Source: Pyrinomonadaceae bacterium
Lineage (GTDB): Bacteria; Acidobacteriota; Blastocatellia; Pyrinomonadales; Pyrinomonadaceae
Length of the DNA: 28,838 bases
Assembly (NCBI GenBank): GCA_035257785.1
Contig: DATEWS010000451.1
Coordinates: 1 to 28,838, forward strand
Reading direction: 5' to 3'
Of the stretch, positions 10,388 through 28,799 are shown piece after piece (position 1 is the stretch's first letter; each line of letters opens with the position of its first letter). The translations under genes were made by a program, and so were the position numbers. A model generated the notes under the pieces. That model was not told where the DNA came from and did no database searches. It saw only the letters and a program-made list of their open reading frames with translations.

Positions 10388-10416
10388 AAACATTCGAGGC
10401 AGGAGGGAGCTTTCGA

Positions 10417-10797
10417 GTGGATACACCAAGTGGCAAGCTAGTACGCTCACATTGTGTTGGCACCACTGCGGTTGTTTACGCAAGCGACTACCTTAATAAG
10501 CTGACCGGCGAGAAGATCGAGCGCGAATGTCGCCGGCAACTGAATTGTGGGTGCCGCGCGCTCGTGATCGACTTCAGCGATACCAAACTGGTCAACAGTA
10601 TAGGTGTCTCAATCCTCCTCGGCATCATCGACGTCGCCGAAAAATGCGGCGCTCGCATCGCCTTTTCAGAAGTGAATAACGAAACAGTCCAGCTATTCGA
10701 AATGCTTGGACTGACTCGCCACGTTGTCCTCGCGAAAGACGAACGAGAAGCGCTGATGAATCTTTCGCACTATGAGACTACTCCCATAGTCCACTGA
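10417..10797 (+). CDS. STAS-domain anti-sigma factor antagonist (RsbV/SpoIIAA-like)
   Basis: 126 aa; LVIDFSDTKLVNSIGVSILL matches the STAS phospho-Ser loop (D-L/F-S...D/N-S-x-G); VQLFEMLGL. GTG start with GGAGG upstream. Confidence 0.88.
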   Translation: MDTPSGKLVRSHCVGTTAVVYASDYLNKLTGEKIERECRRQLNCGCRALVIDFSDTKLVNSIGVSILLGIIDVAEKCGARIAFSEVNNETVQLFEMLGLTRHVVLAKDEREALMNLSHYETTPIVH

Positions 10798-10801
10798 TTC
10801 C

Positions 10802-12064
10802 ATGGAGCCTTCGACTCAGAAACTGATCCACACATTCGGAGCGCTTGCCGACCTGGGCCAGGAGATTGCCGGCACCGGCGATTTCAATGAGATGGTCCGT
10901 ACGTCGATGCACATGCTGCTCGGGACGCTCGCATTGCGACGCGGTGCCGTGGTGGAGTGTACTTCCGGTGGTCCACTTCGTTGCGCCGCGCTCTGGGGTC
11001 TCAGCGACCAGATGTTTGACGGGTTTGAGATCGACGAGCTCGAAAAGCAGTCATTTCTCCAGGGCGATCCAAGTGAACTGCTGGTCAGCAGCACAGAGGT
11101 CACGAACACCTTCATTAATCGACATCGTGACAAACTCACAGCCGAGGGCATCGAACTCGTCTTGCCGATGATCGTGCGTGGTGAAGTGACAGGCATGGTC
11201 CTGCTCGGCGGCAAAGCCAGTGGTGAAGAGTTTTCAGAAGATGACTTCGAAACGATTCGCGCGATGGTCCGTCACATCGGTGTCGGGATTCACACGCATC
11301 GTTTACTCGAACAGGTGGCGCAGCGAGCGGAAGAGAATCGAAGACTGTATGAAGAGTTGCGCGCGATCTATCGCGACACAGTAAGGGCGTTTGCGGCGGC
11401 GATCGATATCAAAGACAAGTACACGCAGGGTCACTCGGAACGTGTGGGCAGGTACAGCGAGATCATCGCGCGTGAGATGGGTTGGAGTGAAGAAGAAGTC
11501 GAGGGAATTCAGATTGCTGGATACCTGCACGACATCGGCAAGTTGATCGTCGATCGCGACATCATCAACGCGCCTTACAACATCGATGCGAAGAATTCGA
11601 GTGAACTGAATCGACATCCTGCGGCGGGATACGAGATCCTGTCGCCGATCAATCATCCTTACGCGGACATACCGTTGATGGCTAAGTACCATCACGAGCG
11701 TCTCGATGGGCGTGGTTATCCGGATGGATTGACGGACGAGCAGATCCCGATCGGCGCAAAGATCGTTTCGCTAGCGGATTCATTTGACGCAATGACGACG
11801 GATCGTCCTTACCGGCGGCGGCGATCGTTTGAAGACGTTGTACGCGATCTGCGGGAGAACAGTGGCAAGCAGTTCGATGGCAAGGTTGTGGCTGCGTTTG
11901 CGAGAGCGATGCTGAAAGAGGTCAAGGGCGAAACCAAAGATCGACGCATCACGAAGATGCTCGGCAAAAGCTACCTCGAAGGTGAACAAGTCCCGACTTT
12001 ACTCACGGATCTCATCTCCGACCTGGAAGAAGTCTCGCGCAGCGGCGCAGCGGCACAACGCTAA
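10802..12064 (+). CDS. GAF + HD-GYP cyclic-dinucleotide phosphodiesterase
   Basis: GAF-like N-terminus (LVLPMIVRGEVTGMVLLGGK), coiled-coil linker, then DKYTQGHSERV, LHDIGK, HHERLDGRGYPDGL, ADSFDAMTTDRPYR. Confidence 0.92.
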   Translation: MEPSTQKLIHTFGALADLGQEIAGTGDFNEMVRTSMHMLLGTLALRRGAVVECTSGGPLRCAALWGLSDQMFDGFEIDELEKQSFLQGDPSELLVSSTEVTNTFINRHRDKLTAEGIELVLPMIVRGEVTGMVLLGGKASGEEFSEDDFETIRAMVRHIGVGIHTHRLLEQVAQRAEENRRLYEELRAIYRDTVRAFAAAIDIKDKYTQGHSERVGRYSEIIAREMGWSEEEVEGIQIAGYLHDIGKLIVDRDIINAPYNIDAKNSSELNRHPAAGYEILSPINHPYADIPLMAKYHHERLDGRGYPDGLTDEQIPIGAKIVSLADSFDAMTTDRPYRRRRSFEDVVRDLRENSGKQFDGKVVAAFARAMLKEVKGETKDRRITKMLGKSYLEGEQVPTLLTDLISDLEEVSRSGAAAQR

Positions 12065-12096: not shown

Positions 12097-12957
12097 TTAC
12101 TTAGGCTGGATTCGCAGAACAAAATTGCAGATCGCAATCTTCTGATCGGGCGCGACTTCGGTCGGTTCTTCGCGGATTAACTCTTTCCCATTCACGACCG
12201 TCGGATTTCGGCCCTTCGCCACGAGCCAGTATCGCCCTTCATTATCACGCGACAGCACCGCATGAACGCGACTCACTTCCGGATCGCCTTTGATCGGAAG
12301 GTCCACCGAGATACTCCGCGAACCACGACCAATCGTTATTTCGTTTTTGGCGATGGGAACCACTGCTTCGCGCACGCCGCTGCGCCACACCTCAACCGAG
12401 TAAAGCGCCTGCGCCTTCGGACGTACGACAGTTTGCTCACTCTCGCTGATTACATCCGAAGCACGCTCTACCACCGTGTCGTTCGGATTAAACGCGGGCG
12501 CCGTCTGCCCCGGATTTACACGCGGCGTCACCATCGTGTGACCACTCTCCGTCTCATCCCAAACTGCCTGCACGCGAAACTCACCCTTATTCAACGTTCC
12601 ATCAACACGCAGTTCAACTGCAAATGACTTGACTGCCAGTTGCGTCTGTCCGCTCAGCTCGCGCGCGCGTTCGGAAAGCACGTGAAAGAGTCCCTGCTCG
12701 AGTCCACGACGCTTATCGCCCTGCCAATCCTTATCGTCATCGGCGCTGAGGTAAACGATGTATTCGCGGGGAATGTAGGTTGGACCACCTGGCGGCGTGA
12801 ACATCTCGCGCTGCATCGCAGCCTCGACTTCGCGCGCAATCTTCACGAGAAACTCTTCCCACACGCGGCGGGGCTTGGCATGTTCGTCGGCGGCTTCGAG
12901 TAGATCCTCGCCTGTTTCACCGTCTATCCATTTTCTGATCGATTCAAGCAGGCCCAA
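12097..12957 (-). CDS. FhaA-like protein: DUF3662-like N-terminal domain + C-terminal FHA domain
   Basis: N-terminal ...TYIPREYIVYLS...GEFRVQA pattern; FHA motifs IGRG, VSRVHA, GRNPTVVNG. TTG start with AAGGAG 7 nt upstream. Confidence 0.85.
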   Translation of the reverse strand: MGLLESIRKWIDGETGEDLLEAADEHAKPRRVWEEFLVKIAREVEAAMQREMFTPPGGPTYIPREYIVYLSADDDKDWQGDKRRGLEQGLFHVLSERARELSGQTQLAVKSFAVELRVDGTLNKGEFRVQAVWDETESGHTMVTPRVNPGQTAPAFNPNDTVVERASDVISESEQTVVRPKAQALYSVEVWRSGVREAVVPIAKNEITIGRGSRSISVDLPIKGDPEVSRVHAVLSRDNEGRYWLVAKGRNPTVVNGKELIREEPTEVAPDQKIAICNFVLRIQPK

Positions 12958-12985
12958 ACTTTCGCTCCTTCTGCCGCACGCAAAA

Positions 12986-14533
12986 TCAGTCGAACTTTAC
13001 GTATATCTTTCGAATCCAGCCACGGTCCGAAGAGTATGGATCGGTCTTCGGCCGCGCATGTTCCAACACCTGCACTTCGTACCAATTGGGATCGGCATTC
13101 AAGATCTTAACCTTTGATCCTGACTCAGCGAGTCCGATGGGAGCGTTATTCGCGCTGCTCGCGATCGGTCGCAGATTTACATCGGTCGTCGTCACACCCT
13201 GCCGCCCAATCGGCTCAACATTCTGTATGGTGGTCAGCGGATTCCAATGCGTCGTCACGTACTTGTGCGTCGCCAATAGCATTCCGGAAAACGCGAGGAT
13301 CAAACCCAACGCAACTAAAGCGCGCCGCTTGCGGCTGGCAGGAAATACAGACGCTGTTACTGGTGGACCGATCGTCTCGAATCTACGTTCCGGTTCAACT
13401 CTCGCATCCTGACGCGTTTGCAGTTCCCGCTGACGCCGCGTTTCCATTCCGACACTGATCGGCACAACGATCCGCGGACGTCTTTGTGAATCAAGCTCGG
13501 TCAGCACCGGACGCGGCACATCGAAGTGCGGTCGCGGCGGCGCCGCTTCCGTGAACTCCTCTTCAGGCTCGACTGACAGATCCGCGCTCGGCTTCCGACG
13601 CATCTGCTGCAACTCAGGCGTCACCATCTGTAACGGCCGCGTCGGCGGCAGGCTCGCATCGGCAATGTCGTCCCAGAACTCTTCAACAGTTTGATAACGA
13701 GCTTCAGGCCGATTTTGAGTCGCCTTTTCAAGCACGCGCAGCACTGGCCTGGACCAAAACTCCTCGCTTATGTGCGACGGCAACTCGCTGATTGCGTGTT
13801 GCGCGAAGCGACGCGGCGATTCACCCGCAAGCAACGTGTACGTCGTCTTCGCAAGCGAATAGATGTCGGCTGCCGGAGTCAGGTGAACGTGCTGCAATCG
13901 CAATCCGGTGGTGTCGAGTTGCCCCGTTTGCATTAAGGGGTTGTGCTCGGGCGCTGAATAGATGTTTGTTCCGACTCTCGTAATCGCACCGTCAGTGTTG
14001 TCGAGACGAGCGACGCCGAAGTCCGCGATCTTCACGACCTCCTGATCGGCGGTGAGCAAAAGGTTTTGCGGTTTGATGTCGCGATGGATGACGCCGCACT
14101 TGTGCGCATGTGCGAGTCCGGAACAGACCTGCTCGAGATAAAACAGCGCTCGCTTGAGCGATAACGGTCGCGTCTTCGTCAACGCAAAGAGATCGCCGCC
14201 GGGCAAATATTCGAGCACGATGTAATGAAACGTTGTGCCCGCGAGATCGATGGCGGTTCCGTGACCAAGGCGATTGATGACGTTCGGATGGCGCACCCGA
14301 TCGAGCGCCACCGCTTCGTTCTGAAAATTCGTGACCAGAGTTCGCTCGAGCTCGGCATCCGGCGCGTCCTGGAGATAGAGATTCAGCGCCTTGATGACGA
14401 TGGTGCGCGCTGCGCCTTCAGGTGCGGCGTTGTCGTTGGCGACGTAGATCTCAGCATAACTGCCGCGTCCGAGGCATTCGAGGATGTCATACCGCCCATC
14501 GAGTCTGCTCTGTTGAAGTTTGAGTTCCGACAT
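12986..14533 (-). CDS. Hanks-type Ser/Thr protein kinase with a TM helix and a C-terminal SH3b-like domain
   Basis: GRGSYA, VIK, HRDIKPQN, DFG, GTNIYSAPE, DIYSL; TM ALVALGLILAFSGMLLA; tail TTTDVNLR...GSKVKILNADPNWYEVQV...GWI resembles bacterial SH3. Confidence 0.92.
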   Translation of the reverse strand: MSELKLQQSRLDGRYDILECLGRGSYAEIYVANDNAAPEGAARTIVIKALNLYLQDAPDAELERTLVTNFQNEAVALDRVRHPNVINRLGHGTAIDLAGTTFHYIVLEYLPGGDLFALTKTRPLSLKRALFYLEQVCSGLAHAHKCGVIHRDIKPQNLLLTADQEVVKIADFGVARLDNTDGAITRVGTNIYSAPEHNPLMQTGQLDTTGLRLQHVHLTPAADIYSLAKTTYTLLAGESPRRFAQHAISELPSHISEEFWSRPVLRVLEKATQNRPEARYQTVEEFWDDIADASLPPTRPLQMVTPELQQMRRKPSADLSVEPEEEFTEAAPPRPHFDVPRPVLTELDSQRRPRIVVPISVGMETRRQRELQTRQDARVEPERRFETIGPPVTASVFPASRKRRALVALGLILAFSGMLLATHKYVTTHWNPLTTIQNVEPIGRQGVTTTDVNLRPIASSANNAPIGLAESGSKVKILNADPNWYEVQVLEHARPKTDPYSSDRGWIRKIYVKFD

Positions 14534-14542
14534 TTAATTTTT

Positions 14543-14624
14543 AGCCACAAAAAGGCACACAAGGCACCTAACAGAACCAAACCGTTCTTTTACGCCTACG
14601 TGCCTTTGGTGCCTTTTTGTGGCT
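14543..14624. repeat. REP-like inverted repeat, family C
   Basis: AGCCACAAAAAGGCAC (14543-14558) / GTGCCTTTTTGTGGCT (14609-14624): perfect 16 bp, plus inner AAGGCAC/GTGCCTT. Confidence 0.85.
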
Positions 14625-14668
14625 CATTTCGCACCTTAGATGCCTCACAAGAGATCATGGTTCTGTGC

Positions 14669-16153
14669 CTAAGGGGCGTTTGAGTTGGAGGGAGGTTTGG
14701 TCAGTTCTTCGTAATGATTCAGCACTTTCCAACGGTCACGCTGAGTGCGAACGCTAACAGCCGCGAGGCCGAGAACTGCTTCTCTTTTGATCGTGGCGTT
14801 TGCGGGCGAGGGATTTGCATCCGCTTTACTGATCGCGGCGTCAAAAGCCTTGCTCGCCTCGTCAGTGTTTCCGGTCAGAAGATTTGCGCGACCGTAAAGA
14901 TACAAAAAATCCGCATTCGGCGAATCGAGTGGACTCTGAACGTTTGACGCCAGCAACTCCTTGCTGATGTCGTTCGCGAGCCACGCGCGTGGATCCTGAT
15001 CGACTTGCCTTCGCGCACGTTCGAACTTCACAAAAGGCTCCTCCGGAACCGGCGTGCTCGTTGGCGCGGAAACCGCCGGTGTTTGCGCCCTGGTTGCCAG
15101 GAAGGGAATTCGTTCCTTGTAACGCGCGCCTGCATAAAAAGCTCCGCCGATTAACAACAGCACGACCAGAACACCTAACAAGCGCCCCACGCCACTGCCT
15201 CCTTTCGCCGCCACAGGCGCCGCAACGTTGAGTGGTTCTGTCACAACTGCGGCTGCCGTCGCAGGCGCCGGAAACGCGATGCGCGAAGCCGGAACAAAAG
15301 TGTTCTCCGGTTCAGAACCGTTGCTCTGGACCGCGTAAACCGGCTCCGTTTCCGGCGTAATCGTCGGTTCCAGATCTGCCAAACGCTCGCCGGCTTTCAA
15401 ATGTTCGCCAACACGCACAACGATCACAGTCAAATTGTCTTCCGCGCCACGCTCGTAGCAACGTCGTTTCAACTCACTGCAAAGATCGTCGAGACTGTTG
15501 CTGATAACCATTAGCTGCCGCAGCTCGTTGTCGGAAACGTGACGAGTGATGCCGTCAGTACAGAGCAGAAACTCCGTGCCGTCTTCGACTTCCATCGTCT
15601 TCATGTCAACTTCGACAGCCTGCTCAGCGCCGAGCGCACGACTGATGACGTTCTTACTGGGATGATTCGCGGCTTGCTCGGGCGTCATTCGTCCGGCCCG
15701 CACTTCTTCTTCGACGATCGAGTGGTCCTCAGTTTCGCGGTGCAGTTGCCCGTCCGGAGTGAGACGGTAGAGACGTGAATCACCGACGTGACCGAACGTC
15801 GCGACGTTGCCTTTGAGATGGAGCGCGACGATCGTAGTCGCCATCATCGAAAACTTCGCGTGCTCCTGGGCCATCTGGTGAATGGAAGCATTCGCGCGTT
15901 GAATGGCGAGCTCCATCAAGTCTTCAACGTCGGCGCCGTCAACCTGGTGTCGAAACGCTTCGTCGAGAACTTCGATCGCTGTTTGCGACGCTACCTCGCC
16001 CGCCTCAGCGCCACCGACGCCATCCGCTACAGCGAAGATGGAACGACCCTGATCGTGGAGGAGTGCGTCCTCGTTCAGTGGGCGCCGTTCGTTCAGGCCG
16101 CGGTCCGTCAGGGCTGCGGAGTGGACCTGAAAGGTTTTAGTGTCTTCGCTCAT
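14669..16153 (-). CDS. PP2C/PPM-family Ser/Thr phosphatase (PstP/Stp1-like) with a TM helix and a helical, TPR-like C-terminal domain
   Basis: TDRG..R..NED, VADGVGG, GHVGDSRLY, LLCTDG, GAEDNLT; TM LLGVLVVLLLIGGAFYA; C-terminal FLYLYGRANLLTGNTDEASKAFDAA is TPR-like. ATGA overlap with the rodA stop. Confidence 0.92.
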   Translation of the reverse strand: MSEDTKTFQVHSAALTDRGLNERRPLNEDALLHDQGRSIFAVADGVGGAEAGEVASQTAIEVLDEAFRHQVDGADVEDLMELAIQRANASIHQMAQEHAKFSMMATTIVALHLKGNVATFGHVGDSRLYRLTPDGQLHRETEDHSIVEEEVRAGRMTPEQAANHPSKNVISRALGAEQAVEVDMKTMEVEDGTEFLLCTDGITRHVSDNELRQLMVISNSLDDLCSELKRRCYERGAEDNLTVIVVRVGEHLKAGERLADLEPTITPETEPVYAVQSNGSEPENTFVPASRIAFPAPATAAAVVTEPLNVAAPVAAKGGSGVGRLLGVLVVLLLIGGAFYAGARYKERIPFLATRAQTPAVSAPTSTPVPEEPFVKFERARRQVDQDPRAWLANDISKELLASNVQSPLDSPNADFLYLYGRANLLTGNTDEASKAFDAAISKADANPSPANATIKREAVLGLAAVSVRTQRDRWKVLNHYEELTKPPSNSNAP

Positions 16154-17841
16154 TCAACTGCCTCCAGCTTAAGGGGAGAAGAACTCTTAGCTACCGGCCG
16201 ATCCGCTATGACACGATCGCGGGCATTTCTACTTGAAAACGCCATCAGCATCCCGAGCATCGCAAAACTAGTAATCAAACTGAAACCACCGTGACTCACA
16301 AACGGCAACGTGATTCCAGTCATCGGCAAAGCACGCAAGATACCGCCAATATTCACGAGGGCTTGAAAACCGACAAACGCTGTTAGACCTGCCGCGCATA
16401 ACTTCGTAAACATATCACGCGCCTCCAGCGAAGTGCGAACTCCTGCGACCACAAAAATAATGATCGCGAGGATGATCACAGCCCCACCAGCGAGGCCGGT
16501 TTCTTCAGCAATTGCGGCGTAAATGTAGTCGGAGTCGGCAATCGGGATCACTTCCGGAAAACCCAGACCAAAGCCGCGTCCGGTTGATTTGCCGGAGGCG
16601 ATTCCAAACTGCGCCTGCGCGGGTTGAAAGGCGAGTTGGTCGAACCAGATATCAACGTTAACAGTCTTCTGCATCGCCGGGCTCTGCTCGGCTAGTTCTT
16701 TTAGTTTCGGATCCTTCTTCAGTGCTTCATCGTAGTCTTTCTTCCACCACGAGACTTCCGGCGACGGCGGATCGAAACCATCGAGCCAGAGATGGAAGCG
16801 TTGTTGAATGCGAGAGGGAAGTGCAGCGCTGATCGGGCGTGCGATCGTCGGCAGCAGCGGCACTTTTTCCTGTATGTCGCGCGGTAACGCGCCAACGACG
16901 AGGATGCTGATCACGAGCAGCACCGAACCGACGAAGAGAAGCAGTTGTGGCCAGCGACGAACAGCGACGAGATAAAGCGTCGTGTAAGCGCCGCTGAAGA
17001 TCAACATCTGGCCGAAGTCTTTGAGTGCGAAGAAGGGAACAAATGGCAATATTGCCATCACGAGTAGCGGCACGATGTCGCGCGCGCGTGGAATGCCCCA
17101 GTAAGTCTCAGCGAGATCTTTGTAACGAGCGGTGAGAATGCCTGCGAAGCCGACGAGGAACGGGATCTTCGAAGGTTCCCACGGCGTCATGTTACCGAGT
17201 GCTTTACCAGCGCTGGATGTGACGACTGCGATCGCGAGTGGAGCAAGCGTGAACAATACGATGATGAAACTATTTCGCTGTAGCCATAAGAGAAAACCGT
17301 CACGCGCACACAACGAATACGCGATCGCGAAAGCGAAGAACGAGAAGACTGGAATCCATGTGTAACTCGAAGTGATGGCGTTCCAGAGTGAGTAGTTCGA
17401 CTCTTTTTTCGGGAGTTGACTGATATCGATCGGCTGGGCCGGAGTTGGAGGCAGACCCATCATCTGTTTCTTGATGGGATCGTAGTTCTCCATGATGTAG
17501 CGCGTACGCAGCGCCTGCATCTTCTCTTCGCGCGCAGCGGCTTTGTTACGCGCGTTGTATTCCGGATCGCTATAGAGGCGATACTGGATCAGCATGCCGA
17601 AGGCGAACAGGAGAATCGCGGTGGTGAAGAGAACCCAGTTGCCGGCAAATCTCTTGCTGCGCGAGAGCCAGAGCACCAGGAAGATCAGTGGAACGAACAT
17701 CGCGAGGTCGCGCACCGCGCCGATGATCGATGTTTCGTATCCTCGCAACAAGCCGGAACGATGCACCGCGAAATAACCGGTGATCTCGAGGCCGAGAATG
17801 ATCAGGATGATTAATAGATGTGACGATGCCCGATTCCGCAT
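16150..17841 (-). CDS. rodA: SEDS-family peptidoglycan glycosyltransferase (RodA/FtsW), 563 aa, with loop insertions
   Basis: KDFG, GFGLGFP, DSDYIYAAIAEE (catalytic Asp region), NIGG...LPMTGITLPFVSHGGFS; about 10 TMs; adjacent to a class B PBP. The rodA symbol rests on synteny. Confidence 0.88.
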   Translation of the reverse strand: MRNRASSHLLIILIILGLEITGYFAVHRSGLLRGYETSIIGAVRDLAMFVPLIFLVLWLSRSKRFAGNWVLFTTAILLFAFGMLIQYRLYSDPEYNARNKAAAREEKMQALRTRYIMENYDPIKKQMMGLPPTPAQPIDISQLPKKESNYSLWNAITSSYTWIPVFSFFAFAIAYSLCARDGFLLWLQRNSFIIVLFTLAPLAIAVVTSSAGKALGNMTPWEPSKIPFLVGFAGILTARYKDLAETYWGIPRARDIVPLLVMAILPFVPFFALKDFGQMLIFSGAYTTLYLVAVRRWPQLLLFVGSVLLVISILVVGALPRDIQEKVPLLPTIARPISAALPSRIQQRFHLWLDGFDPPSPEVSWWKKDYDEALKKDPKLKELAEQSPAMQKTVNVDIWFDQLAFQPAQAQFGIASGKSTGRGFGLGFPEVIPIADSDYIYAAIAEETGLAGGAVIILAIIIFVVAGVRTSLEARDMFTKLCAAGLTAFVGFQALVNIGGILRALPMTGITLPFVSHGGFSLITSFAMLGMLMAFSSRNARDRVIADRPVAKSSSPLKLEAVE

Positions 17842-17848
17842 ATGTTTT

Positions 17849-17902
17849 AACCACAGATGACACAGATAGAAAATCGGATTTTTTTCTGTGTCATCTGTGG
17901 TT
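17849..17902. repeat. REP-like inverted repeat, family A copy 2
   Basis: AACCACAGATGACACAGA / TCTGTGTCATCTGTGGTT: perfect 18 bp. Its 18-nt loop TAGAAAATCGGATTTTTT is nearly identical to the loop of copy 1. Confidence 0.88.
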
Positions 17903-17904
17903 TC

Positions 17905-19740
17905 TTATCTGAAATACCCGAGGTCCCTCGCTTTCAACACGAGCGCTGCGGCGATGGGCGCAGCGGATCTCGATCCGTAACCACCACCTTCAACAATCAC
18001 CGCCATCGCAAGCTGCGGCTTCTCGAGCGGCGCGATGCACAGAAACCAACCGTCAATCCGCGGATGGTCATTGTCCATGATCACTTCATCGTACTCGCGG
18101 ATGATGTTGCCCTTATTATCGCGCTCGACCTTGTGTTGCGTCTTGGGTTCTCCAGTCTTGGGATCGTAAACAGGCACGACCTTCTGCGCCGTTCCCGTTT
18201 TGCCACCGGTATTGATTCCCGCGGCCTTCACTGGTCCAAACACACCGCGCGCCGTTCCACTTGGACCACCTGTGACCAACCCCATGATGGATCGCAAACG
18301 AGCCGCAGTCTGCGGCGTCATCACCTGGTTGAACGGCTGTGGCGCCACGTTGTACTCGATCCGGGGCTTCATCAACTTGCCTTCCATATTCCCAATCGCC
18401 GACGCCGCGAGCGCCATTTGAAACGGCGTCATCTGTCCCGCATAACCCTGACCGTAACCCATCAACGCCAGGTCGTATCTCGTCACCTGCTTCCCCGTAA
18501 CGATCGTCGCCTCCCTCGGTGCGAGCGCGCGTTTAACTGCATCAGTGCTCGCATCCCAGATCTCCGGCAGCTTGCGACCACGCAACGCTTCCGAAGGCGT
18601 GTCATAAGCACCGATGCCCAACAACTGCGCCGCGCGTTTCAGACGTTCCGGTCCGAGCTTCACGCCCATCTGCGCGAAGTACTGGTTACAAGAAACCTCA
18701 TACGCCTGATCGATCTTGATCCGGCCGTGTACTTCGCCCGGTCCACCATCGTCGAAAATCACGGGCGCTCCGGGCGCGGCATAGTAACCACCGCCACTAC
18801 AGGTAAACTCCGTGTCCTGCTCGCCCGCCAGAAACGCGGCAGTCATAGTCACTGTTTTAAAGGTGGAGCCGGGAATGTAATACGCACCGAGCGCACGACT
18901 GACGAGCGGTTTGTCGCGTTCATTCGCTTCGAGACGAATCCACGTTGCTTCGTCGTCAACTTCCGCCAGACTGTAAGAAGGCTCGCTGTAAAGCGCGAGC
19001 ACGTCTCCGGTTTGCGGATTAAGAACTACGACCGCGCCGTGCTTTCCCTTCAACTGGTCCACCGCGGCCTGTTGCAGCGAACGATCGATCGTGAGGCGCA
19101 CGTCCTGGTTGCCTTTGAACTCGACTTCCTTGCCTTTAACGATCTCAAGCGCTTCGGGCAGAGCGCCACTCTGAACTCCGAACAACGCACGCTCGAGTCC
19201 CGGATCGCCGCGATCCGATCCGAATATGTGGGCCAACGCCTTATCCATCGGATACTCACGCTGGATGTTGCCGCTCGAATCGCGTTTGTAATAAGCGAGC
19301 GGTTGGTCCACACGACCGCTGCGATCATAGATCCAGCCGCGCAGCGTAGATTGCGAAAGCCGGCGCACGCGCAGGTCCTTGTAACTCAAGTCCTGAAACT
19401 TTTCATTTTGTTCTACAGCGTATTGCGCCCAGTAGATATGAAAACCAAAGAGGCCGAACGCAAGCAGGATAAAAAACCAGCGCAGAGCGCGTAATCCGCG
19501 ATTGGTTGAAGTTGACCCGAGTCTTTTTCGGACTTCTTTGGGAAGGTCTTCAGGAATAGCAGGACCGATCTGGCGACGACTGCGAATCAGTCCGAGCAGT
19601 AAGAGCAAAATGACGAAGCCGAAACCTCCGACGTAGATCAGCGTGAACAGCGCCGGGGTTCGTTCGGGCACATGCGGAGTCGGAAGGGGAGTAGGTGCAG
19701 AAGTTTGGAAGAGAAGTAGAAGTAATATGAATCCGTTCAT
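17905..19740 (-). CDS. pbpA: Class B penicillin-binding protein (PbpA-like transpeptidase)
   Basis: LRGWIYDRSG pedestal motif, SxxK (PGSTFK), SxN (SCN), KTG (GKTGTAQ). The symbol is assigned from similarity of architecture and synteny to the actinobacterial rodA-pbpA pair. Confidence 0.88.
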   Translation of the reverse strand: MNGFILLLLLFQTSAPTPLPTPHVPERTPALFTLIYVGGFGFVILLLLLGLIRSRRQIGPAIPEDLPKEVRKRLGSTSTNRGLRALRWFFILLAFGLFGFHIYWAQYAVEQNEKFQDLSYKDLRVRRLSQSTLRGWIYDRSGRVDQPLAYYKRDSSGNIQREYPMDKALAHIFGSDRGDPGLERALFGVQSGALPEALEIVKGKEVEFKGNQDVRLTIDRSLQQAAVDQLKGKHGAVVVLNPQTGDVLALYSEPSYSLAEVDDEATWIRLEANERDKPLVSRALGAYYIPGSTFKTVTMTAAFLAGEQDTEFTCSGGGYYAAPGAPVIFDDGGPGEVHGRIKIDQAYEVSCNQYFAQMGVKLGPERLKRAAQLLGIGAYDTPSEALRGRKLPEIWDASTDAVKRALAPREATIVTGKQVTRYDLALMGYGQGYAGQMTPFQMALAASAIGNMEGKLMKPRIEYNVAPQPFNQVMTPQTAARLRSIMGLVTGGPSGTARGVFGPVKAAGINTGGKTGTAQKVVPVYDPKTGEPKTQHKVERDNKGNIIREYDEVIMDNDHPRIDGWFLCIAPLEKPQLAMAVIVEGGGYGSRSAAPIAAALVLKARDLGYFR

Positions 19741-19749
19741 CCAGTTTCG

Positions 19750-20598
19750 CTACTCACTTTTACGCAATCGTACTTCTACGTCTCCAAAACCAACCACATC
19801 GCCGTCTTCGATCAATCGTGATTCACCATAAGAGATGCGACGCCCGTTGAGGTAAGTGCCGTTGGTCGAACCAGTGTCGGCAACGAGAAGCGTGCCTTCG
19901 GCAGTCATCAAGAGCGCGCCATGAATCTTCGACACGCTTGCGTCGTTCAAGGTGAGTTCGTTATCAGCGGCGCGGCCGACGTTGAGTCGTTTGCCTCCGG
20001 GCTTGAAGATCAGCGGAATTTCGCGCGTGCCGGCTGGCATAGTAACGCGTGCGATCACCTGGATGTCAGGCATCGGCGGCGCCGCGCCCGGAATCGGCAA
20101 ACCCAATTTAGCGGCGCGCATCTCTTCGTCCTGACGCCTGAGATCCTCTTCGAATTCTCCAAAAGTCGGATCGACGGAGATTCCGGTGGTGAAGATGTCG
20201 ACTTCGGCGTCGACCGTAACTGGTCCAAGCGTGCGGTAACGATGATCGTTAATGTGATCGATCGCGGCGGCGAGCACTTCGTTTTTCAGATCGTGAAGAA
20301 TTTCGGGCGGTGCTTCGGAATGCGTGCCCCACTCGACTTTGAGGACGAGGTGGTGCGGCGCGATCCTGCCTTTCCTGCCTTCGTCTCGAACGCGCTCATC
20401 GATCAACTTTTTCATGCGCTCGATGAGTTTCGAAGTGGTGAGTCCGCTTCGCGGTTCGACTGTGCGACCGAGCCCGCGGTCGACGACGCTGCCCATGCCT
20501 TCGAGCACGCGACGCAGCAGGCGTTCGGGTAGCGCTTCCTCGCGCTTTTTCCTTGCGTCTTCGTTTACCTTACCAGCCGAGTCTTCTGCGTCAGTCAT
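19750..20598 (-). CDS. FhaA-like protein: DUF3662-like domain + FHA domain
   Basis: IAPHHLVLKV...AIDHINDHRYRTLGPVTV (DUF3662-like); FHA motifs VGRAADN, SVSKIHG, DTGSTNGTYLNG. Confidence 0.88.
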   Translation of the reverse strand: MTDAEDSAGKVNEDARKKREEALPERLLRRVLEGMGSVVDRGLGRTVEPRSGLTTSKLIERMKKLIDERVRDEGRKGRIAPHHLVLKVEWGTHSEAPPEILHDLKNEVLAAAIDHINDHRYRTLGPVTVDAEVDIFTTGISVDPTFGEFEEDLRRQDEEMRAAKLGLPIPGAAPPMPDIQVIARVTMPAGTREIPLIFKPGGKRLNVGRAADNELTLNDASVSKIHGALLMTAEGTLLVADTGSTNGTYLNGRRISYGESRLIEDGDVVGFGDVEVRLRKSE

Positions 20599-20664: not shown

Positions 20665-20757
20665 TTTCACGCAAAGGCGCAAAGTTCACACAAAGCCCGC
20701 AAAGAAGGGTTCATTCTCCTTTGCGCCTTTGCGTAAACTTTGCGCCTTTGCGTGAAA
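20665..20757. repeat. REP-like inverted repeat, family B, nested double stem
   Basis: TTTCACGCAAAGGCGCAAAGTT (20665-20686) / AACTTTGCGCCTTTGCGTGAAA (20736-20757): perfect 22 bp, plus an imperfect inner stem of the same unit. Lies just downstream of the stop of the VIT-TBDR gene. Confidence 0.9.
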
Positions 20758-20767: not shown

Positions 20768-23700
20768 CTAGAAGAGGAACTTCACCGAGAATCGCATAGT
20801 CCGGGCACCGCTCGTTGATGTCGACTGACCAAACGCAAGACTATTCCCCGCGACGAGATCATTCCCAACCGGATCTTCAAAATTCGTGTGATTGAACACA
20901 TTGAAAGCATCCGCCTGAATCTGTAGCGCGACGGTTTCGCTGAAGTTGAACTTCCGGCGTAATCCCCAATCAACCTGGCTGAACGAAAAACCGCGCAAGC
21001 CGTTTCGCGCAAAACTTCCTTGCTCCAAAGTTGACGGGATCAGAAACGCCCCCGGGTTGAGTCGTCGCCCTCCGGGCGCCGTCGCGTCAAGAATATAAAA
21101 CGAAGTTCCGGTAGCAACATCCGGTCGGAAATACGCCACGCCGTATGAAGTCGGAAACATGTAAACGACATTCAACGGCCGCGCGGAGCGAGCGTTGAAG
21201 ATCGAATGGGTCGCCCAATTACGGAAGAGTTTATTTCCCAGGCCATGCGCGAATGGCGCCGGCAGTTGGTAAGAGATGTGGCCGGCGAGATGGTGCCTGA
21301 CGTCAAAGTCGGATGGACCACGATCGAGTTCAGGATTCGCGCTCGCCATGATCACTCTTCGCTCTGAATCCTCACTCACATTGTCGCGTGACTGTGACCA
21401 CACGTACGAGACGTGCGCGACGAGATTGGCAGAAACCGAGCGATCAAAGCTCAGTTGAAGAGCGCGATAATCCGAGTTGCCGCGATTCGTTACGAGTCGC
21501 AGAAAACCCTCATCAAAAAGAGTCTCGGTATGCAGCAGTCTCTTGCCTGACGAACCAACATAGACAGCAGAGACTTCTTGATCTGATCCGAGAGTTCTTT
21601 CGAGTGAAACACTCCAGTCAATCGAGTACGGCACTTTCAGTTGGCGATCAAAAGCAATGACAGGCAGCGCGCTGTCGCCCGAGACGAAGGGGATCGAGTT
21701 TGCGAAATAGTTTCCGGAGCGGTCCTGGCTCACGTCGTATACAACACCCACAGATCCTCGCAACACCGTGTTAGCGTTCTGATCCATTTGATAAGCAACG
21801 CTCGCGCGCGGAGCGAAATTGCCGAACGTCGTGTTCCACAGTTGCTGGCCGTCGGTCGATGGCGCCGGCGCGAGTTCCCAACGCGTGCCGTACACGAGTG
21901 TCACTCGCGATGACGGTTTCCACTGATCCTGTCCGAACAGCGATAACCTATTGAACACCGGCTCCTGCGGAGTGTCGTGATTCACAAAGCTGATGCGAGA
22001 CAGCACACCGCCGGTAAACAGAACGTTTTGCTCCGATGCTCGCTGCCCGATAGTGGGTGAGAAGCGGCGATAGTCGGCACCAAACTTTAGATCGTGATTG
22101 CCGCTGATTCTTTGCACGAAGCCAACCAAATTAAACTGGCGTTGCACGCTCGCTGTCTCGTCGCCGCGCATGAACGCCGCGTTACGCGAACTCAGATCGA
22201 AAGTAAATGCTGACGGGGAGAGATTGTCAGGCACTACCGCGCCGCCAACGTCGTCGAGCAGATATGCGCCGTTCACCCTTGCGCGACTGTAGTTGGCGTG
22301 CAACTCCATCTGCATAACTGGCGAGAACAGGTGGATCAGCGATCCGGTGAATGCTCGTGCTCGGGTGCGAACTCGATTAGTGGTGTTGAGTGAAAAGCCG
22401 TTTGCGCCGCGCTGTGACGCGTCGGAGTCTGCGAAGCTATAACGTCCCAGCACGTTCGATCCGGAAGTGAAGTTATGTTCGAGTCGCAAACTGCCAACAT
22501 CGTGTCGCACCGGATTTGCGAAGCTCGCTGCGAACTCGGCGAAACCATCAGGCCGCGCTGGACCAGTCGGTAATGGAAACGCGTTCAGAAACGATCCGGC
22601 AGTTCGCGAGCTTAGTGAAGGCACATCCGTGACTCCGACGGATGGTTGCCGCAATCGCAGTCCTTCGTACGCGCCGAAGAAGAACGTGTGATCGCGTCTG
22701 ATTGGACCACCAAACGAAGCGCCGAAAAGATTCAGTCTTCTCGGTGGTTGCTCAAGACCGCGACTGTTGGCAAACCAGTCACTCGCATCGAAGACGTCGT
22801 TCCCGAAGAAATGAAACACAGAACCATGAAACTCATTGGTTCCGGCGCGCGTGCTCACGTTGATCTGCGCGCCTGCGCCGGGACCGTCCTCGGGCTTTGT
22901 GGCAAGTGTTTGAATGTTTATCTCAGCAATCGCGTCGAGCGAAGCAATGCCATTGGTTCCACCACTTGCAGTCAGCGCTGGAGCATTACCTGACGCAGAG
23001 GACCCGGGACTTTCACCGCCCGCGGCGATGCCGAACTTCGCGCTCACGCCATCAACCTTAAACTCATTTGCGTTTGGTCGATGACCATTCATTGCAAGAT
23101 CAACGTTGTACAGGGAATTGGCGGATTGATTGGCGCTCGCGCCGGGCGTCAGAGCTACCAGACTGTTGTAACTTCTCCCTTGCAGCGGCAATTCCGAGAT
23201 GGTACGTACAGCGATTGTTGAGTATAGAGCACAGGTAAATCCGGGACTCCCACTAACAATAGTGACGCACTCCGTAATGCCTACGACGTTCGATGAAACA
23301 TCGACACGTTGCGGCGCATCAGCACCAGTAAAGATCTGATCGTCGATCGCGACAAAGGACGTGTACTGCGTCATCAGCTTGAACGTCAGACCCAGTTGCG
23401 TGACCTCTTCCCGCAATTGTTCTTGTTGAGGTTTGTTTTCCGGCGATTGGGCCAACTCCTGGCCCATGAGATCGGAGACCTTGCGTCTGGCCCATAATGT
23501 TGCCAGCACGTCGTGATCAGCTTCAGTCTCCGGCAGTTTCACTCTGATCTCACGCACGAATTCCTGGCCCGCCATTTTTCCTTTCAAACGTATCGTTCCT
23601 TCAGCGCCGGACGAATATCGTCCCGAGAGAATCACGGGCTTCGCGCTAAAGAGGTCAGGGATGTTCTTTGGATAGACGTCGCTCACCGGCATGCTGCCCC

Positions 23701-25168
23701 AATCAACCGTGAGGTCAGTTAACAAAGGATTGCGAATGCGTTCATGGAAACGGCGCGCGGCGGCCGATGTATCCCCTTGGTCTGAAACATAGTCGACTTC
23801 GCCTCTGCCATATTCGGCCATCTTGTCGAGCAGGAAACGATTGGGATTACTTCCGAAACCCATCGCAAACACACGCGCATTCGGATGTTTCTGTACTTCC
23901 GAAATGATCTGCATGTCGTTGCCGACGAGACCGTCGGTCATGAAACACACGATGCGCACATGATACTGAGAATCTGAAGGATCGAGCGCAGCCTTGATCG
24001 CCTGCATCATTTCTGTGCCGCCGCCGCTGCTGTACCCATCAAGAAATGTTTTGGCCGTTGCCAGATTCTCAGGAGTAGCCGCCACGGGTTCGGGGAAGAG
24101 GATGTCAGTGCTGCCCGAAAAGGTAATTAAGTTGAACGTGTCGTGCGGGTAAAGGTTGTTGAGTGCGAGGCTCATCGTTTCTCTGGCTTTATCAAACGGG
24201 AAGCCGGACATCGAACCCGAAGTATCCAGAACAAAGACCAACTCTTTCGGCATCACGTCTTCCGGTGAGACGCGCTGGGGTGGCTGTAAGATAAGAGTGA
24301 AGAAGCCACCCCTTTCGGAGCGATGGGCGAGGACGGCATCGTTGATGGAGTCGCCGGCAACGCGATAGGTGAGAACGAAATCTTTATTCGGAATGGTGGC
24401 GCGATCTTTCAGACGAACGACGGAGTGATGTTCGCTGAGTTGTTGTACTTCAGTTTCGTGAGTTAGTGAGCTGACTTCGAGGATCGGCACACCCGCATCC
24501 AAATCGAGTTCGAGCGAGATATCGTGACCGTTACGTGCGTGGGCAGGACTATGGTGCAACTCTTGGCCATTTGAACGAGGCATATAACGCGGGCCAACCA
24601 CCATCGGAAACGACCACTCGTAAGATCCGTCTTCATACTTCAGGGTCTCAACGTAGCTGATGATGATTTGAATTTGTTGGCCCGGCATGATGTTGGCGAT
24701 TTGCTGCGTGAAGATATTCGGGCGCTGCTGATCGAGCAGGCTGGCCACTTTGCCTTGCTCTTTTGCAGCGGTGTACGCGGCTTGTGCTTCCTGGCGTCGC
24801 ATGATCTTGCCTTTGATCGTGCGGTCACCAATCCGCATCGTCAGATCGTCAACGGCGGCAGCTTGCGGCAGTGGGAACGTGTAGACCGCTTCAATCTTGT
24901 TCGGGAAGTTGTTTTCGAAATCCTGAGTGACTGTGACGCGCGAGATGGAGCCACTCACCTGCGCTTTAACCCACGTGTGTTTCAAAGGAACTTCGGCTGA
25001 AGGTTTTCCTTTGTCATCGAGGACCTGAATGCTGCCCCGACTCTGCGGTTTCTCATCGTCTTTTGCAGCGGCGGCAGTGTCGGAGTGCGCGAGGCGCAAG
25101 ATCGTCAAGACAGTTAAGGTCGCAACGATGGCGAGTGTGGTCCATTTGAGAAATAATCGGCGGCGCAT
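20768..25168 (-). CDS. VIT + vWA protein fused to a TonB-dependent-receptor-like plug and beta-barrel (1466 aa)
   Basis: VIT (VTVTQDFEN...IEAVYTFPLP...ASLLDQQRPNIF); vWA with complete MIDAS (DTSGS, GGGT, TDG); LMTQYTSFVA. Then TBDR plug (ISELPLQGR...LTPG...NGHRPNANEFKVDG), GTNEFHGS, FGGPIRRDHTFFFGAYEG, QDQWK, RLDRGPSDFD-like LDRGPSDFD, FNVFNHTNF and a terminal Phe (VKFLF). AAGGA RBS upstream. Confidence 0.85.
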   Translation of the reverse strand: MRRRLFLKWTTLAIVATLTVLTILRLAHSDTAAAAKDDEKPQSRGSIQVLDDKGKPSAEVPLKHTWVKAQVSGSISRVTVTQDFENNFPNKIEAVYTFPLPQAAAVDDLTMRIGDRTIKGKIMRRQEAQAAYTAAKEQGKVASLLDQQRPNIFTQQIANIMPGQQIQIIISYVETLKYEDGSYEWSFPMVVGPRYMPRSNGQELHHSPAHARNGHDISLELDLDAGVPILEVSSLTHETEVQQLSEHHSVVRLKDRATIPNKDFVLTYRVAGDSINDAVLAHRSERGGFFTLILQPPQRVSPEDVMPKELVFVLDTSGSMSGFPFDKARETMSLALNNLYPHDTFNLITFSGSTDILFPEPVAATPENLATAKTFLDGYSSGGGTEMMQAIKAALDPSDSQYHVRIVCFMTDGLVGNDMQIISEVQKHPNARVFAMGFGSNPNRFLLDKMAEYGRGEVDYVSDQGDTSAAARRFHERIRNPLLTDLTVDWGSMPVSDVYPKNIPDLFSAKPVILSGRYSSGAEGTIRLKGKMAGQEFVREIRVKLPETEADHDVLATLWARRKVSDLMGQELAQSPENKPQQEQLREEVTQLGLTFKLMTQYTSFVAIDDQIFTGADAPQRVDVSSNVVGITECVTIVSGSPGFTCALYSTIAVRTISELPLQGRSYNSLVALTPGASANQSANSLYNVDLAMNGHRPNANEFKVDGVSAKFGIAAGGESPGSSASGNAPALTASGGTNGIASLDAIAEINIQTLATKPEDGPGAGAQINVSTRAGTNEFHGSVFHFFGNDVFDASDWFANSRGLEQPPRRLNLFGASFGGPIRRDHTFFFGAYEGLRLRQPSVGVTDVPSLSSRTAGSFLNAFPLPTGPARPDGFAEFAASFANPVRHDVGSLRLEHNFTSGSNVLGRYSFADSDASQRGANGFSLNTTNRVRTRARAFTGSLIHLFSPVMQMELHANYSRARVNGAYLLDDVGGAVVPDNLSPSAFTFDLSSRNAAFMRGDETASVQRQFNLVGFVQRISGNHDLKFGADYRRFSPTIGQRASEQNVLFTGGVLSRISFVNHDTPQEPVFNRLSLFGQDQWKPSSRVTLVYGTRWELAPAPSTDGQQLWNTTFGNFAPRASVAYQMDQNANTVLRGSVGVVYDVSQDRSGNYFANSIPFVSGDSALPVIAFDRQLKVPYSIDWSVSLERTLGSDQEVSAVYVGSSGKRLLHTETLFDEGFLRLVTNRGNSDYRALQLSFDRSVSANLVAHVSYVWSQSRDNVSEDSERRVIMASANPELDRGPSDFDVRHHLAGHISYQLPAPFAHGLGNKLFRNWATHSIFNARSARPLNVVYMFPTSYGVAYFRPDVATGTSFYILDATAPGGRRLNPGAFLIPSTLEQGSFARNGLRGFSFSQVDWGLRRKFNFSETVALQIQADAFNVFNHTNFEDPVGNDLVAGNSLAFGQSTSTSGARTMRFSVKFLF

Positions 25169-28172: not shown

Positions 28173-28799
28173 ATGACAAATAGTGAAGTCTTCCCAATTT
28201 TGCACGGTGGCCTGGCGGCCACAACGAAATCTGAACCAGCGCCAAATTCGGATTTGGCGTTGGCTATCGCCGCCGGCAAAGGCGACATGGGCGCGTTTGA
28301 GAAGATTTATGAGCGTCACAACCGGCGGGTGTATTCACTGTGTCTGCGGATGACGCAGAATGCGGCTGAGGCTGAAGATCTCGCCCAGGAGGCGTTCATA
28401 CAGTTATTTCGCAAGATCGGCAGCTTCCGTGGCGATTCTGCATTCACGACATGGCTGCACCGGTTGACGGTCAACCAGTGTCTGATGCACTTCCGGAAAC
28501 GCAGTGTGAAGATGGAGAAAACCACTGAGGAAGGTGAGACGCCGGTACAGATCGTCAGCGGCACTGAAAACCCCAACTCGATGCCGATCATGGATCGCAT
28601 CGCGCTGGATAATGCGTTAACACAACTACCGCCGGGATATCGAACCGTCTTTGTGTTACACGACGTTGAAGGTCACGAACACGAAGAGATCGCGAAGATG
28701 CTCGGCGTTGCTGTCGGCACTTCCAAGTCGCAGTTGCACAAAGCGCGCATGAAGCTGCGCAAGATTCTTAAAGCGCGCAACGAACCAAGCAAGAATTAA
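28173..28799 (+). CDS. ECF-family sigma-70 RNA polymerase sigma factor (208 aa)
   Basis: Region 2: AFEKIYERH...AEDLAQEAF...[11 protein letters not shown]. Region 4: [16 protein letters not shown]...EEIAKMLG...[11 protein letters not shown]. No region 3 and no C-terminal extension. Confidence 0.93.

Follow-up and report, generated by a model that had tools for sequence, protein, structure and literature searches.

The window analysed is a 28,838-nt stretch of a Pyrinomonadaceae genome (contig DATEWS010000451.1), on the reverse strand of which one uninterrupted open reading frame joins a VIT-vWA module to a TonB-dependent transporter (TBDT) (Table 1). The domain order is signal peptide, VIT, vWA, ITIH-like part, TonB-box-like motif, plug and Oar-type barrel, and residues invariant in the family are spread across both halves of the protein. 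A preliminary description of the locus had reported neither a stop codon nor a second signal peptide at the junction, and the single frame, free of internal stops, agrees with this; the protein has no second signal peptide. The N-terminus (RRR, a hydrophobic stretch and AHS/D, without a lipobox cysteine) reads as a Sec signal peptide with a probable cleavage site at about residue 29, and both M1 and the hydrophobic N-terminus are kept in the family consensus. The hairpin past the stop codon is a weak candidate for a terminator, as the consensus scan found 10 terminator-like sites in the region versus 5.6 expected from shuffles. An Rfam scan of the whole window revealed no riboswitch or other RNA hinting at a substrate. 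Four X19 pieces and one X20 piece, all contigs of RNA libraries, fall on both halves of the gene and do not amount to proof of transcription or of a junction-spanning transcript.

Table 1. Features of the fusion gene and its surroundings in the window.
Feature	Residues	Positions	Strand	Basis or remark
Whole gene	1466 aa plus stop	20768..25168	-	VIT-vWA-TonB box-plug-barrel fusion
Probable Sec signal peptide	1 to about 29	25082..25168	-	Sequence reading
VIT domain	62-172	24653..24985	-	PF08487, E 5.3e-35; genome scan gives identical coordinates
vWA domain	309-463	23780..24244	-	PF13768 (VWA_3, E 3.7e-19) and PF00092
MIDAS	D315-x-S317-x-S319	24212-24226	-	Completed by T385 and D412
ITIH-like C-terminal part	464-612	23333..23779	-	Beta sandwich and two long helices; AF2 secondary structure
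TonB-box-like motif ECVTIVSG	633-640	23249..23272	-	Within variable linker 613-654
Plug domain	about 655-771	22856..23206	-	Aligned to plugs of six paralogs
Oar-type outer-membrane beta barrel	772-1466	20771..22855	-	PF25183 (OMP_b-brl_4)
Terminator-like hairpin, 10 pairs		20698..20725	-	43 nt past stop, before FHA gene; consensus scan
ECF sigma factor gene		28173-28799		3 kb from fusion gene

The N-terminal module is an ITIH-like VIT-vWA protein, in which VIT is followed by a vWA domain with MIDAS in an ITIH fold. The five MIDAS residues are invariant in 30 of 30 aligned fused family members and in 16 of 16 free VIT-vWA relatives. The AF2 model of residues 1-640 (pLDDT 74.7) was matched by Foldseek to ITIH1 (6fpy) over 608 columns (E 2e-34, TM 0.61-0.64), and a profile search of the PDB returned the VIT-vWA part of PARP4 (E 1.6e-49) together with ITIH4 and ITIH1. 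A full unit of VIT, vWA with intact MIDAS and ITI-like part had been proposed for residues ~60-610; Pfam, MIDAS invariance and the fold match confirm it, with slightly different limits, the unit ending near residue 612. The module thus shares with ITIH1, ITIH4 and PARP4 the VIT and vWA domains, the C-terminal part and the intact MIDAS, and with ITIH1 the fold of the whole module. It differs in its bacterial origin, in sharing only 18% identity with ITIH1 and in being joined to a membrane barrel. In NCBIfam, the module scored best with TIGR03788, "marine proteobacterial sortase target protein" (508.4 bits, residues 208-621). The fusion protein is not a member of that family, as the score lies below the curated cut-off of 551.65 and TonB box, plug and barrel stand in place of the C-terminal sorting signal.

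The junction was examined by aligning the protein with six PF25183 paralogs from the same genome that bear a CarboxypepD_reg domain. Homology begins at the TonB-box-like motif (for example, VTETVTVTSES...ELPLNGRN in a paralog and ITECVTIVSGS...ELPLQGRS in the fusion, with ELPLQGRS at residues 658-665), and VIT-vWA occupies the position of the small domain. No match to CarboxypepD_reg (PF13620/PF13715) was found in the fusion protein at E<=0.1. The alignment therefore supports the earlier proposal that VIT-vWA cleanly replaces the carboxypeptidase-regulatory-like domain. ECVTIVSG aligns with the corresponding motif of the paralogs and is a candidate TonB box. The family consensus is VTVT[AS], kept across all fused lineages; each of the 11 fused forms inspected has a comparable motif, as do ordinary relatives. 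The segment behind it can be assigned as a plug from its alignment with the paralogs, relative to which it carries a Gly/Ser/Ala-rich insertion, and from the match of the family profile to the FusA plug (ferredoxin receptor, 4zgv; E 3.9e-5), despite the missing match to Pfam Plug PF07715 at E<=1. In solved TBDTs, the end N-terminal to the TonB box and plug faces the periplasm. Because VIT-vWA replaces CarboxypepD_reg just before the TonB box, the module should, by TBDT topology, be periplasmic.

The C-terminal part is an outer-membrane barrel of the TBDT type. PF25183, which has 93 matches in the source genome, aligns in four stretches that together take in positions 1-837 of the 838 in the profile (E 8.5e-114), relatives of the protein also match PF00593, and the barrel ends in FSVKFLF with F1466 invariant in the family. 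A receptor had been noted at residues ~628-1466; the receptor part is indeed there, with refined limits that place the plug from ~655 and the PF25183 barrel from about 772. The AF2 model of residues 600-1466, built on a 30-row alignment of close relatives, was poor (pLDDT 44.8) and gave no usable strand count for the presumed closed 22-strand barrel and no position for the plug; its Foldseek matches, all of them TBDTs, reached TM values of only 0.22-0.39. The compactness remarked on earlier (about 840 aa) holds: 843 aa follow residue 623, where nine other fused forms have 895-966 and 45 ordinary relatives a median of 955. The barrel part owes its shortness to three deletions of 19, 20 and 9 columns, which fall in loop-like stretches rich in Pro/Gly; some of these deletions are common to the nearest relatives. 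Only loop-like segments are missing in comparison with relatives, which speaks against the earlier concern that the barrel might be too truncated to close.

Among the best relatives listed, 119 of 120 are full length, with at least 97% coverage and the same domains. The fusion lies in one frame at 25 of 80 related genome loci, and a junction-spanning match without stops was found in 25 of 400 further Pyrinomonadaceae genomes. None was found in 373 sampled genomes from other families of the phylum, and the distribution is patchy. The possibility that relatives always encode two separate genes, raised in the preliminary description, does not hold, since most carry one frame; its suspicion of misassembly was addressed by Logan contigs from two further studies (3546 and 1941 nt), which span nt 23206-23311 with no indel. 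An artefact or a decaying gene, arising by misassembly, by read-through of two genes or in a receptor losing its barrel, might be argued from the frameshifts at 2 of 27 loci with both halves (L031 twice, L035 once) and from the length of the protein, which at 1466 aa lies at the short end of the family (median 1520). However, the frameshifts fall inside the C-terminal part of vWA and away from the domain junction, the deletions affect loop-like segments and recur in relatives, invariant residues lie in both halves, more than 100 relatives are intact, and independent assemblies bridge the junction. We regard the chance of such an origin as negligible.

The combination of module and receptor also appears to be under selection. 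The VIT-vWA modules of L052 and L054 nest within the fused clade (SH-aLRT 97), but the barrel of L052 shares no more than 22-26% identity with any other; one lineage has kept the module and carries an unrelated barrel. Among 43 complete free VIT-vWA genes, six lie within 1 kb of a PF25183 receptor gene on the same strand, with either gene coming first. The unrelated barrel and these adjacent receptors together suggest selection for the pairing. A complex prediction between the free VIT-vWA protein of L082 and the adjacent receptor's N-terminal extension with its TonB box gave no answer (score 0.00) and so speaks neither for nor against a contact.

Elsewhere, relatives of the module form the extracytoplasmic part of zf-HC2 anti-sigma factors, in the order zf-HC2, TM helix, CarboxypepD_reg, VIT, vWA; one of these has a start that overlaps an ECF sigma gene by 4 nt. 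Fusions to TonB_C (E 3.1e-15), FecR (E 2.3e-18), LysM or PDZ are found in further relatives, the TonB_C, FecR and anti-sigma fusions each being single or few proteins among the 67 matches listed. Free VIT-vWA paralogs match TIGR03788 as well as the fusion does, and one in the source genome has RRKR behind a hydrophobic stretch at its C-terminus, which we interpret as a possible PEP-CTERM-like sorting tail.

The N-terminal extensions of TonB-dependent receptors decide their roles beyond transport, such as signalling and partner docking, and to our knowledge few kinds of extension have been described. The extension described here, roughly 570 aa long, ITIH-like and bearing a MIDAS, adds a new kind. 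It is conserved in many soil Acidobacteria, and genomes of this phylum each encode dozens of Oar-type receptors yet to be characterised. No VIT-vWA-TBDT fusion was found described in the literature searched, which did not cover subscription journals. A survey of 34,893 TBDTs, in the part of its text available, gives five N-terminal architectures, built from CarboxypepD_reg, STN and AMIN and not from VIT-vWA (PMC6434023). The fusion resembles Oar of Myxococcus xanthus in barrel class, TonB-box-like motif and plug sequence pattern, and its nearest non-fused relatives (36-44% identity) have exactly the Oar architecture of CarboxypepD_reg, plug and barrel. With VIT-vWA in place of CarboxypepD_reg, it falls outside the Oar subclass. 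Like FecA and FpvA, it has an extra folded domain N-terminal to the TonB box, and relatives of that domain occur in anti-sigma factors and with FecR. Unlike them, it has no STN, a domain of about 80 aa and thus about one-seventh the size of VIT-vWA, and no FecR-type partner lies beside the orthologous ECF gene of relative L040, so that it does not qualify as a transducer. MIDAS-bearing vWA proteins also work with barrels or Ton/Tol-like motors in CglB-GltABH and in proposed inner-membrane-tethered "force transducers". As far as the accessible portions of these reports go, those are separate proteins without VIT, CglB being a surface lipoprotein (PMC9946355, PMC12204202), whereas the VIT-vWA module of the fusion is part of one polypeptide with a TBDT.

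We consider it probable, though well short of certain, that the protein is an Oar/PF25183 TBDT whose N-terminal VIT-vWA extension makes a MIDAS-dependent periplasmic contact. After Sec export, barrel and plug would insert into the outer membrane, and the TonB-box-like strand with everything N-terminal to it would remain in the periplasm, so that VIT-vWA would sit where FecA-type receptors carry their signalling domain. There, the MIDAS could bind an acidic group on a partner that is periplasmic or anchored in the inner membrane. The contact may couple the transporter, presumably TonB-dependent, to its cargo or to a partner in trans-envelope signalling or energisation. Conservation is higher in the module than in the barrel (mean column identity about 0.82 versus 0.72; identity of relatives to the window protein 65-84% versus 55-78%), which fits a protected periplasmic domain, since a surface-exposed one would be expected to vary more. 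The extracytoplasmic place of related modules in zf-HC2 anti-sigma factors, and their fusions to TonB_C, FecR, LysM and PDZ, fit this compartment too. On the other side, proteins with vWA and VIT are classically extracellular adhesins, which counts against a periplasmic contact, as do the lack of a conserved partner gene and the small number of fusions to TonB_C, FecR and anti-sigma factors.

An alternative is that VIT-vWA is displayed outside and the barrel merely anchors it, much as in autotransporters or intimin. MIDAS-bearing vWA domains are typical adhesins, all VIT-vWA proteins here resemble the sortase target TIGR03788 (508 bits, cut-off 551.65), the tail of the free paralog can be read as a sorting signal, and the Myxococcus surface adhesin CglB, in the available part of the report, works with outer-membrane barrels bearing a TonB-box-like motif (PMC9946355). 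Nevertheless, the module lies N-terminal to a conserved TonB-box motif and plug, no pore-spanning linker was seen, its relatives are found within anti-sigma factors and next to TonB_C and FecR domains, and the difference in conservation runs the wrong way. AF2 models of VIT-vWA cores are deeply knotted according to a preprint available in part (10.1101/2023.06.16.545156), and such a knot would hinder threading through a pore. We judge surface display to be quite improbable. An Oar-like transporter that exports a periplasmic protein in a TonB-dependent manner, with VIT-vWA as the cargo-recruiting adaptor, is unlikely as well, if somewhat easier to entertain: the barrel is of the PF25183 class, the nearest non-fused relatives are built like Oar, and the only solved structure matched by the family profile in the transporter part is that of a protein (ferredoxin) transporter, FusA. 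No candidate cargo gene is conserved beside the fusion gene, however, and most receptors of such architecture, e.g. SusC, are importers. Oar secretes PopC even without its N-terminal extension (PMC6434023, which also names SusC). Extensions of this sort, then, need not be essential.

Signalling from the cell surface through the nearby ECF sigma factor seems very improbable. In its favour, the ECF gene lies in the same neighbourhood at 15 of 25 intact fused loci, and VIT-vWA occurs in anti-sigma factors of other Acidobacteriota whose genes adjoin an ECF sigma gene. The conserved neighbours (ECF, OmpA-like and DUF763 genes; FHA-PBP2-RodA-PP2C-kinase-FHA) are 80-96% identical among close kin, however, and the ECF gene itself is 92-96% identical, so that shared synteny can be mere relatedness. 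These neighbours are absent from four other genomic contexts of fused genes (L052, L058, L060 and L085), and no conserved partner gene of the fusion was found across the fused loci examined. Pfam detected no STN domain in the receptor; in L040, the orthologous ECF gene has no FecR or zf-HC2 anti-sigma gene beside it and is followed by cupin, SDR and methyltransferase genes; and the hairpin and divergent orientation suggest separate units. A link between receptor and sigma factor is thus not supported, in keeping with the earlier remark that nothing proved one. A zf-HC2 scan of the source genome gave 15 matches, and one long anti-sigma factor, C863 (903 aa), FecR-like by eye, adjoins an ECF sigma gene; nothing ties it to the fusion gene.

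More broadly, the same MIDAS module occurs on the outer-membrane side in the receptor and on the inner-membrane side in zf-HC2 anti-sigma factors, and is joined to TonB_C and FecR. On these grounds one might speculate, as a possible but doubtful extension of the periplasmic-contact reading, that VIT-vWA is a previously unrecognised coupling domain of Ton and cell-surface signalling, a "periplasmic integrin" that would link Oar-type receptors to ECF signalling or Ton motors by metal-dependent contacts and be transferable between unrelated barrels. We know of no function assigned so far to bacterial VIT-vWA proteins; their repeated joining to receptors, anti-sigma factors, TonB_C and FecR gives them a testable cellular address, and the hypothesis that follows is a periplasmic, metal-dependent contact within trans-envelope systems. 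The source genome holds 14 TonB_C matches, the best of which, C520, is peptidase-like and not a canonical TonB.

A single frame of 1466 aa with zero internal stops occupies 20768-25168 on the minus strand, and the domains of its product are listed in the table below. The Pfam match to the barrel family PF25183 consists of four stretches, the first beginning near residue 772 and the last ending at 1458, which together cover profile positions 1-837 of 838. For the N-terminal half, the top NCBIfam match was the sortase-target family TIGR03788 with 508 bits, under the cut-off of 551.65. The MIDAS residues D315, S317, S319, T385 and D412 are all found in the protein, and none of them varies across the 30 relatives aligned. 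Residues 1-640, modelled with AF2 (pLDDT 74.7), matched ITIH1 over 608 columns (E 2e-34, TM 0.61-0.64), and a profile search against PDB sequences placed PARP4 at the top (E 1.6e-49), followed by ITIH4 and ITIH1; the region after the junction matched the plug of the ferredoxin receptor FusA (E 3.9e-5). The plug carries a Gly/Ser/Ala-rich insertion. The AF2 model of the barrel was poor (pLDDT 44.8), and its Foldseek matches were weak and were TonB-dependent transporters (TBDTs) throughout. The preliminary description had read a VIT-vWA module fused in frame to a TonB-dependent receptor; the Pfam matches, the MIDAS and the ITIH1 fold match show that this architecture is correct, with borders now refined.

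Features of the fused protein, its neighbouring gene cluster and related proteins
Feature	Sequence	Position	Strand	Match or size
VIT	Fused protein	residues 62-172		Pfam, E 5.3e-35
vWA	Fused protein	residues 309-463		Pfam
End of VIT-vWA module	Fused protein	residue about 612		
TonB-box-like ECVTIVSG	Fused protein	residues 633-640		
Plug	Fused protein	residues about 655-771		
Oar-type outer-membrane barrel PF25183	Fused protein	residues 772-1466 (C-terminal Phe)		Pfam, E 8.5e-114
FHA (FhaA_N-like), PBP2-type transpeptidase, RodA/FtsW, PP2C phosphatase, Ser/Thr kinase, FHA (six-gene cluster)	Window	12097-20598	-	
Fused gene	L052	9974-15115		1713 aa
Fused gene	L054	9932-15088		1718 aa
VIT-vWA + TonB_C, single protein	P0277	TonB_C 773-844		E 3.1e-15
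VIT-vWA + FecR + TPR, single protein	P0336	FecR 84-172		E 2.3e-18
VIT-vWA + LysM, single protein	P0305			
VIT-vWA + PDZ, single protein	P0275			

The fused gene is real and conserved. Among the best 120 of 3674 matches at E<=0.001 (8000 candidates scored), 119 proteins span at least 97% of the query, are 1458-1586 aa long, show 57-99% identity and match the same Pfam families; the odd one is a 1169-aa fragment. In NCBI these relatives are Pyrinomonadaceae proteins called 'TonB-dependent receptor' or 'VIT domain-containing protein', and fused proteins stand in public databases under automatic names only. Both halves lie in one frame at 25 of 80 loci from species-representative genomes; at 53 the VIT-vWA has no in-frame barrel, and 10 of these 53 hit a contig end. 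Two orthologous fused genes carry frameshifts within the C-terminal part of the vWA, off the junction (two in L031, one in L035), which are either sequencing errors or occasional pseudogenes. The junction itself is bridged with zero indels by Logan contigs of two other studies, of 3546 nt (22034-25168) and 1941 nt (22034-23974), and near-identical DNA occurs in sequencing runs of soil, rhizosphere and plant metagenomes from 10 studies. Full-length relatives, one-frame loci and junction-bridging contigs thus exclude chance read-through and also misassembly, against which the preliminary description had wanted the junction checked, and they contradict the idea that relatives always encode two separate genes.

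The window genome, a MAG of 933 contigs that is 89% complete, contains 93 PF25183 matches, representing dozens of receptor genes, and three VIT genes. Residues 560-900 of the fused protein were aligned with six paralogs from the same genome, of which the first 420 residues were used. Homology starts at the TonB-box-like strand and runs on through the plug, and the VIT-vWA occupies the place of the paralogs' signal peptide and CarboxypepD_reg domain, as had been proposed from the linker. The barrel had also been called compact, and indeed the receptor part after residue 623 has 843 aa; nine other fused forms have 895-966 aa, and the median for 45 ordinary relatives is 955. The receptor part is short because 19, 20 and 9 columns have been deleted from Pro/Gly-rich segments that resemble loops, and some of these deletions are common to the nearest relatives. 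Two free VIT-vWA paralogs lie on contigs C11 (L012:879-2858) and C37 (L014) of this genome. One ends in a hydrophobic stretch and RRKR, which could be read as a PEP-CTERM-like tail; the other has a Gly-rich linker and a C-terminal domain common to the free proteins of about 850 aa in relatives.

A survey of 34,893 TBDTs (PMC6434023) recognized five types of N-terminal architecture, composed of CarboxypepD_reg, STN and AMIN, and the VIT-vWA extension is absent from all five. The fused proteins would have escaped that survey because PF07715 and PF00593 were required. A literature search outside subscription journals found, among the papers listed, no description of a VIT-vWA-TBDT fusion. The nearest functional analogies are to the CglB adhesin system (PMC9946355) and to vWA proteins of the periplasm for which a role as Ton/Tol-like force transducers has been proposed (PMC12204202).

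The fused gene is lineage-restricted and patchy. With a junction-spanning query of 321 aa (residues 480-800), a full-length match was found in 2 of 401 genomes of a phylum sample (five candidates scored per genome), namely the window's own and one congener. Within the same bacterial family, matches at E<=1e-60 came from 26 of 401 genomes and 9 of 60 genera, a count that includes the window's own genome and the unpublished G415; all have zero stops, in open frames of 1198-1691 aa. When the receptor part was searched exhaustively against 1.84 billion representatives, 27,394 matches were obtained. Among the best 150, four full-length representatives are fused (P0124, P0129, P0151 and P0192), and P0123 and P0249, which are shorter and match vWA and barrel with no VIT match, look like N-terminally cut copies. 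Most others are CarboxypepD_reg receptors of about 1000-1130 aa with 36-44% identity.

A quick IQ-TREE run with midpoint root took in the barrels of 11 fused forms, of 4 receptors beside free VIT-vWA genes and of ordinary receptors, for which the first 45 of 126 eligible ones were used; L054 and L085 were left out. All but one of the 11 fused barrels group in one clade (SH-aLRT 97), whose sister group is made up of the 45 ordinary barrels. The L052 barrel falls outside that clade, with 22-26% identity to every other barrel. In a tree of VIT-vWA modules (12 from fused proteins, 28 free ones at related loci and 2 of the window genome; L069 dropped), L052 and L054 are nested in the fused clade beside L058 (SH-aLRT 97). 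This points to a barrel swap, in which the L052 lineage would have retained its module while gaining an unrelated barrel, and the module-receptor combination would have been assembled at least twice. The TonB-box-like motif is kept in 11 of the 11 fused forms inspected. A PF25183 receptor lies within 1 kb on the same strand of 6 of 43 complete free VIT-vWA genes, in either gene order; these genes come from kin, so that the count carries no statistical weight.

In solved TBDTs, the TonB box and all parts N-terminal to it are on the periplasmic side, and we infer by analogy that the VIT-vWA module is periplasmic. Three observations agree with this placement. Mean column identity is about 0.82 in the VIT-vWA half versus 0.72 in the barrel. 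In other Acidobacteriota, relatives of the module form the extracytoplasmic part of anti-sigma factors: L116:180-3413 of genome G025 has, in order, zf-HC2, one TM helix, CarboxypepD_reg, VIT, vWA and a PDZ-like tail, its start is overlapped by 4 nt by an ECF sigma gene (L117:2569-3183), and L114:298-4080 of genome G096 and P0274 have the same architecture. Further fusions were sought among 67 relatives of the L116 protein at E<=1e-20, and the module was found joined to TonB_C, FecR, LysM or PDZ; the proteins are few, yet all of the partners are cell-envelope domains. A periplasmic location is established for FecR, for LysM and for the sensor parts of anti-sigma factors.

With moderate confidence, we propose that the window protein is a TBDT with the MIDAS-bearing VIT-vWA as N-terminal extension, placed where the signalling domain would sit in FecA-type receptors, and that this module contacts, in a metal-dependent manner, a partner that is either periplasmic or anchored in the inner membrane. 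A variant in which it recruits cargo for Oar-like secretion seems unlikely; in Oar, a Myxococcus xanthus TBDT with a CarboxypepD_reg extension, the TonB box is required for secretion of the protein PopC and the N-terminal extension is dispensable, according to PMC6434023. Display of the module on the cell surface is less probable still, since the location of the plug and the TonB box argues against it, as does the deep knot in AF2 models of VIT-vWA cores reported in a preprint (10.1101/2023.06.16.545156).

Two further loci were also seen. L115:951-4670 (genome G331) encodes a 1240-aa protein in which VIT-vWA is accompanied by two CarboxypepD_reg-like domains, a TonB-box-like motif and a plug-like domain (Plug E 4.6e-4); its tail looks helical by eye, with no barrel, and the frame ends 120 nt short of the contig end, so that either an unusual architecture or a fault in the assembly may lie behind it. 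Directly upstream of the fused gene in L085, the segment 5767-9577 holds a VIT-domain protein like XrtN-system targets (TIGR04477, under its cut-off at 114 bits) together with an exosortase whose best match, XrtQ, is also below cut-off.

At orthologous loci, a divergent ECF sigma gene and an OmpA-like gene (sometimes DUF763) lie on one side of the fused gene and the FHA-PBP2-RodA-PP2C-Ser/Thr kinase-FHA cluster lies downstream. The neighbours are 80-96% identical there, compared with 57-63% for the fused protein, and the synteny may be plain relatedness. The fused genes of L052, L058, L060 and L085 have wholly different neighbours, and in L040 a cupin, an SDR and a methyltransferase gene come after the ECF gene. 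With these loci, and with no STN domain found by Pfam in the window protein, a functional tie to the local ECF sigma is unsupported. A terminator-like hairpin follows the stop codon of the fused gene, and an Rfam scan of the whole window matched no family. The six-gene cluster directly downstream is 74-94% identical in related genomes, and its gene order is the arrangement of actinobacterial cell-wall regulation. Antisense to its PBP2 gene, an Arg-rich, low-complexity frame of 545 aa (17857-19494, plus strand) has most likely arisen by chance on the strand opposite a real gene. Elsewhere in the window (169-6201 and 6289-12064), an oligopeptide-type ABC transporter operon with SBP_bac_5, two permeases and two ATPases precedes genes for a PocR-GAF-GGDEF protein, a HATPase_c_2 protein of 775 aa, a STAS protein and a GAF-HD (HD_5) protein.
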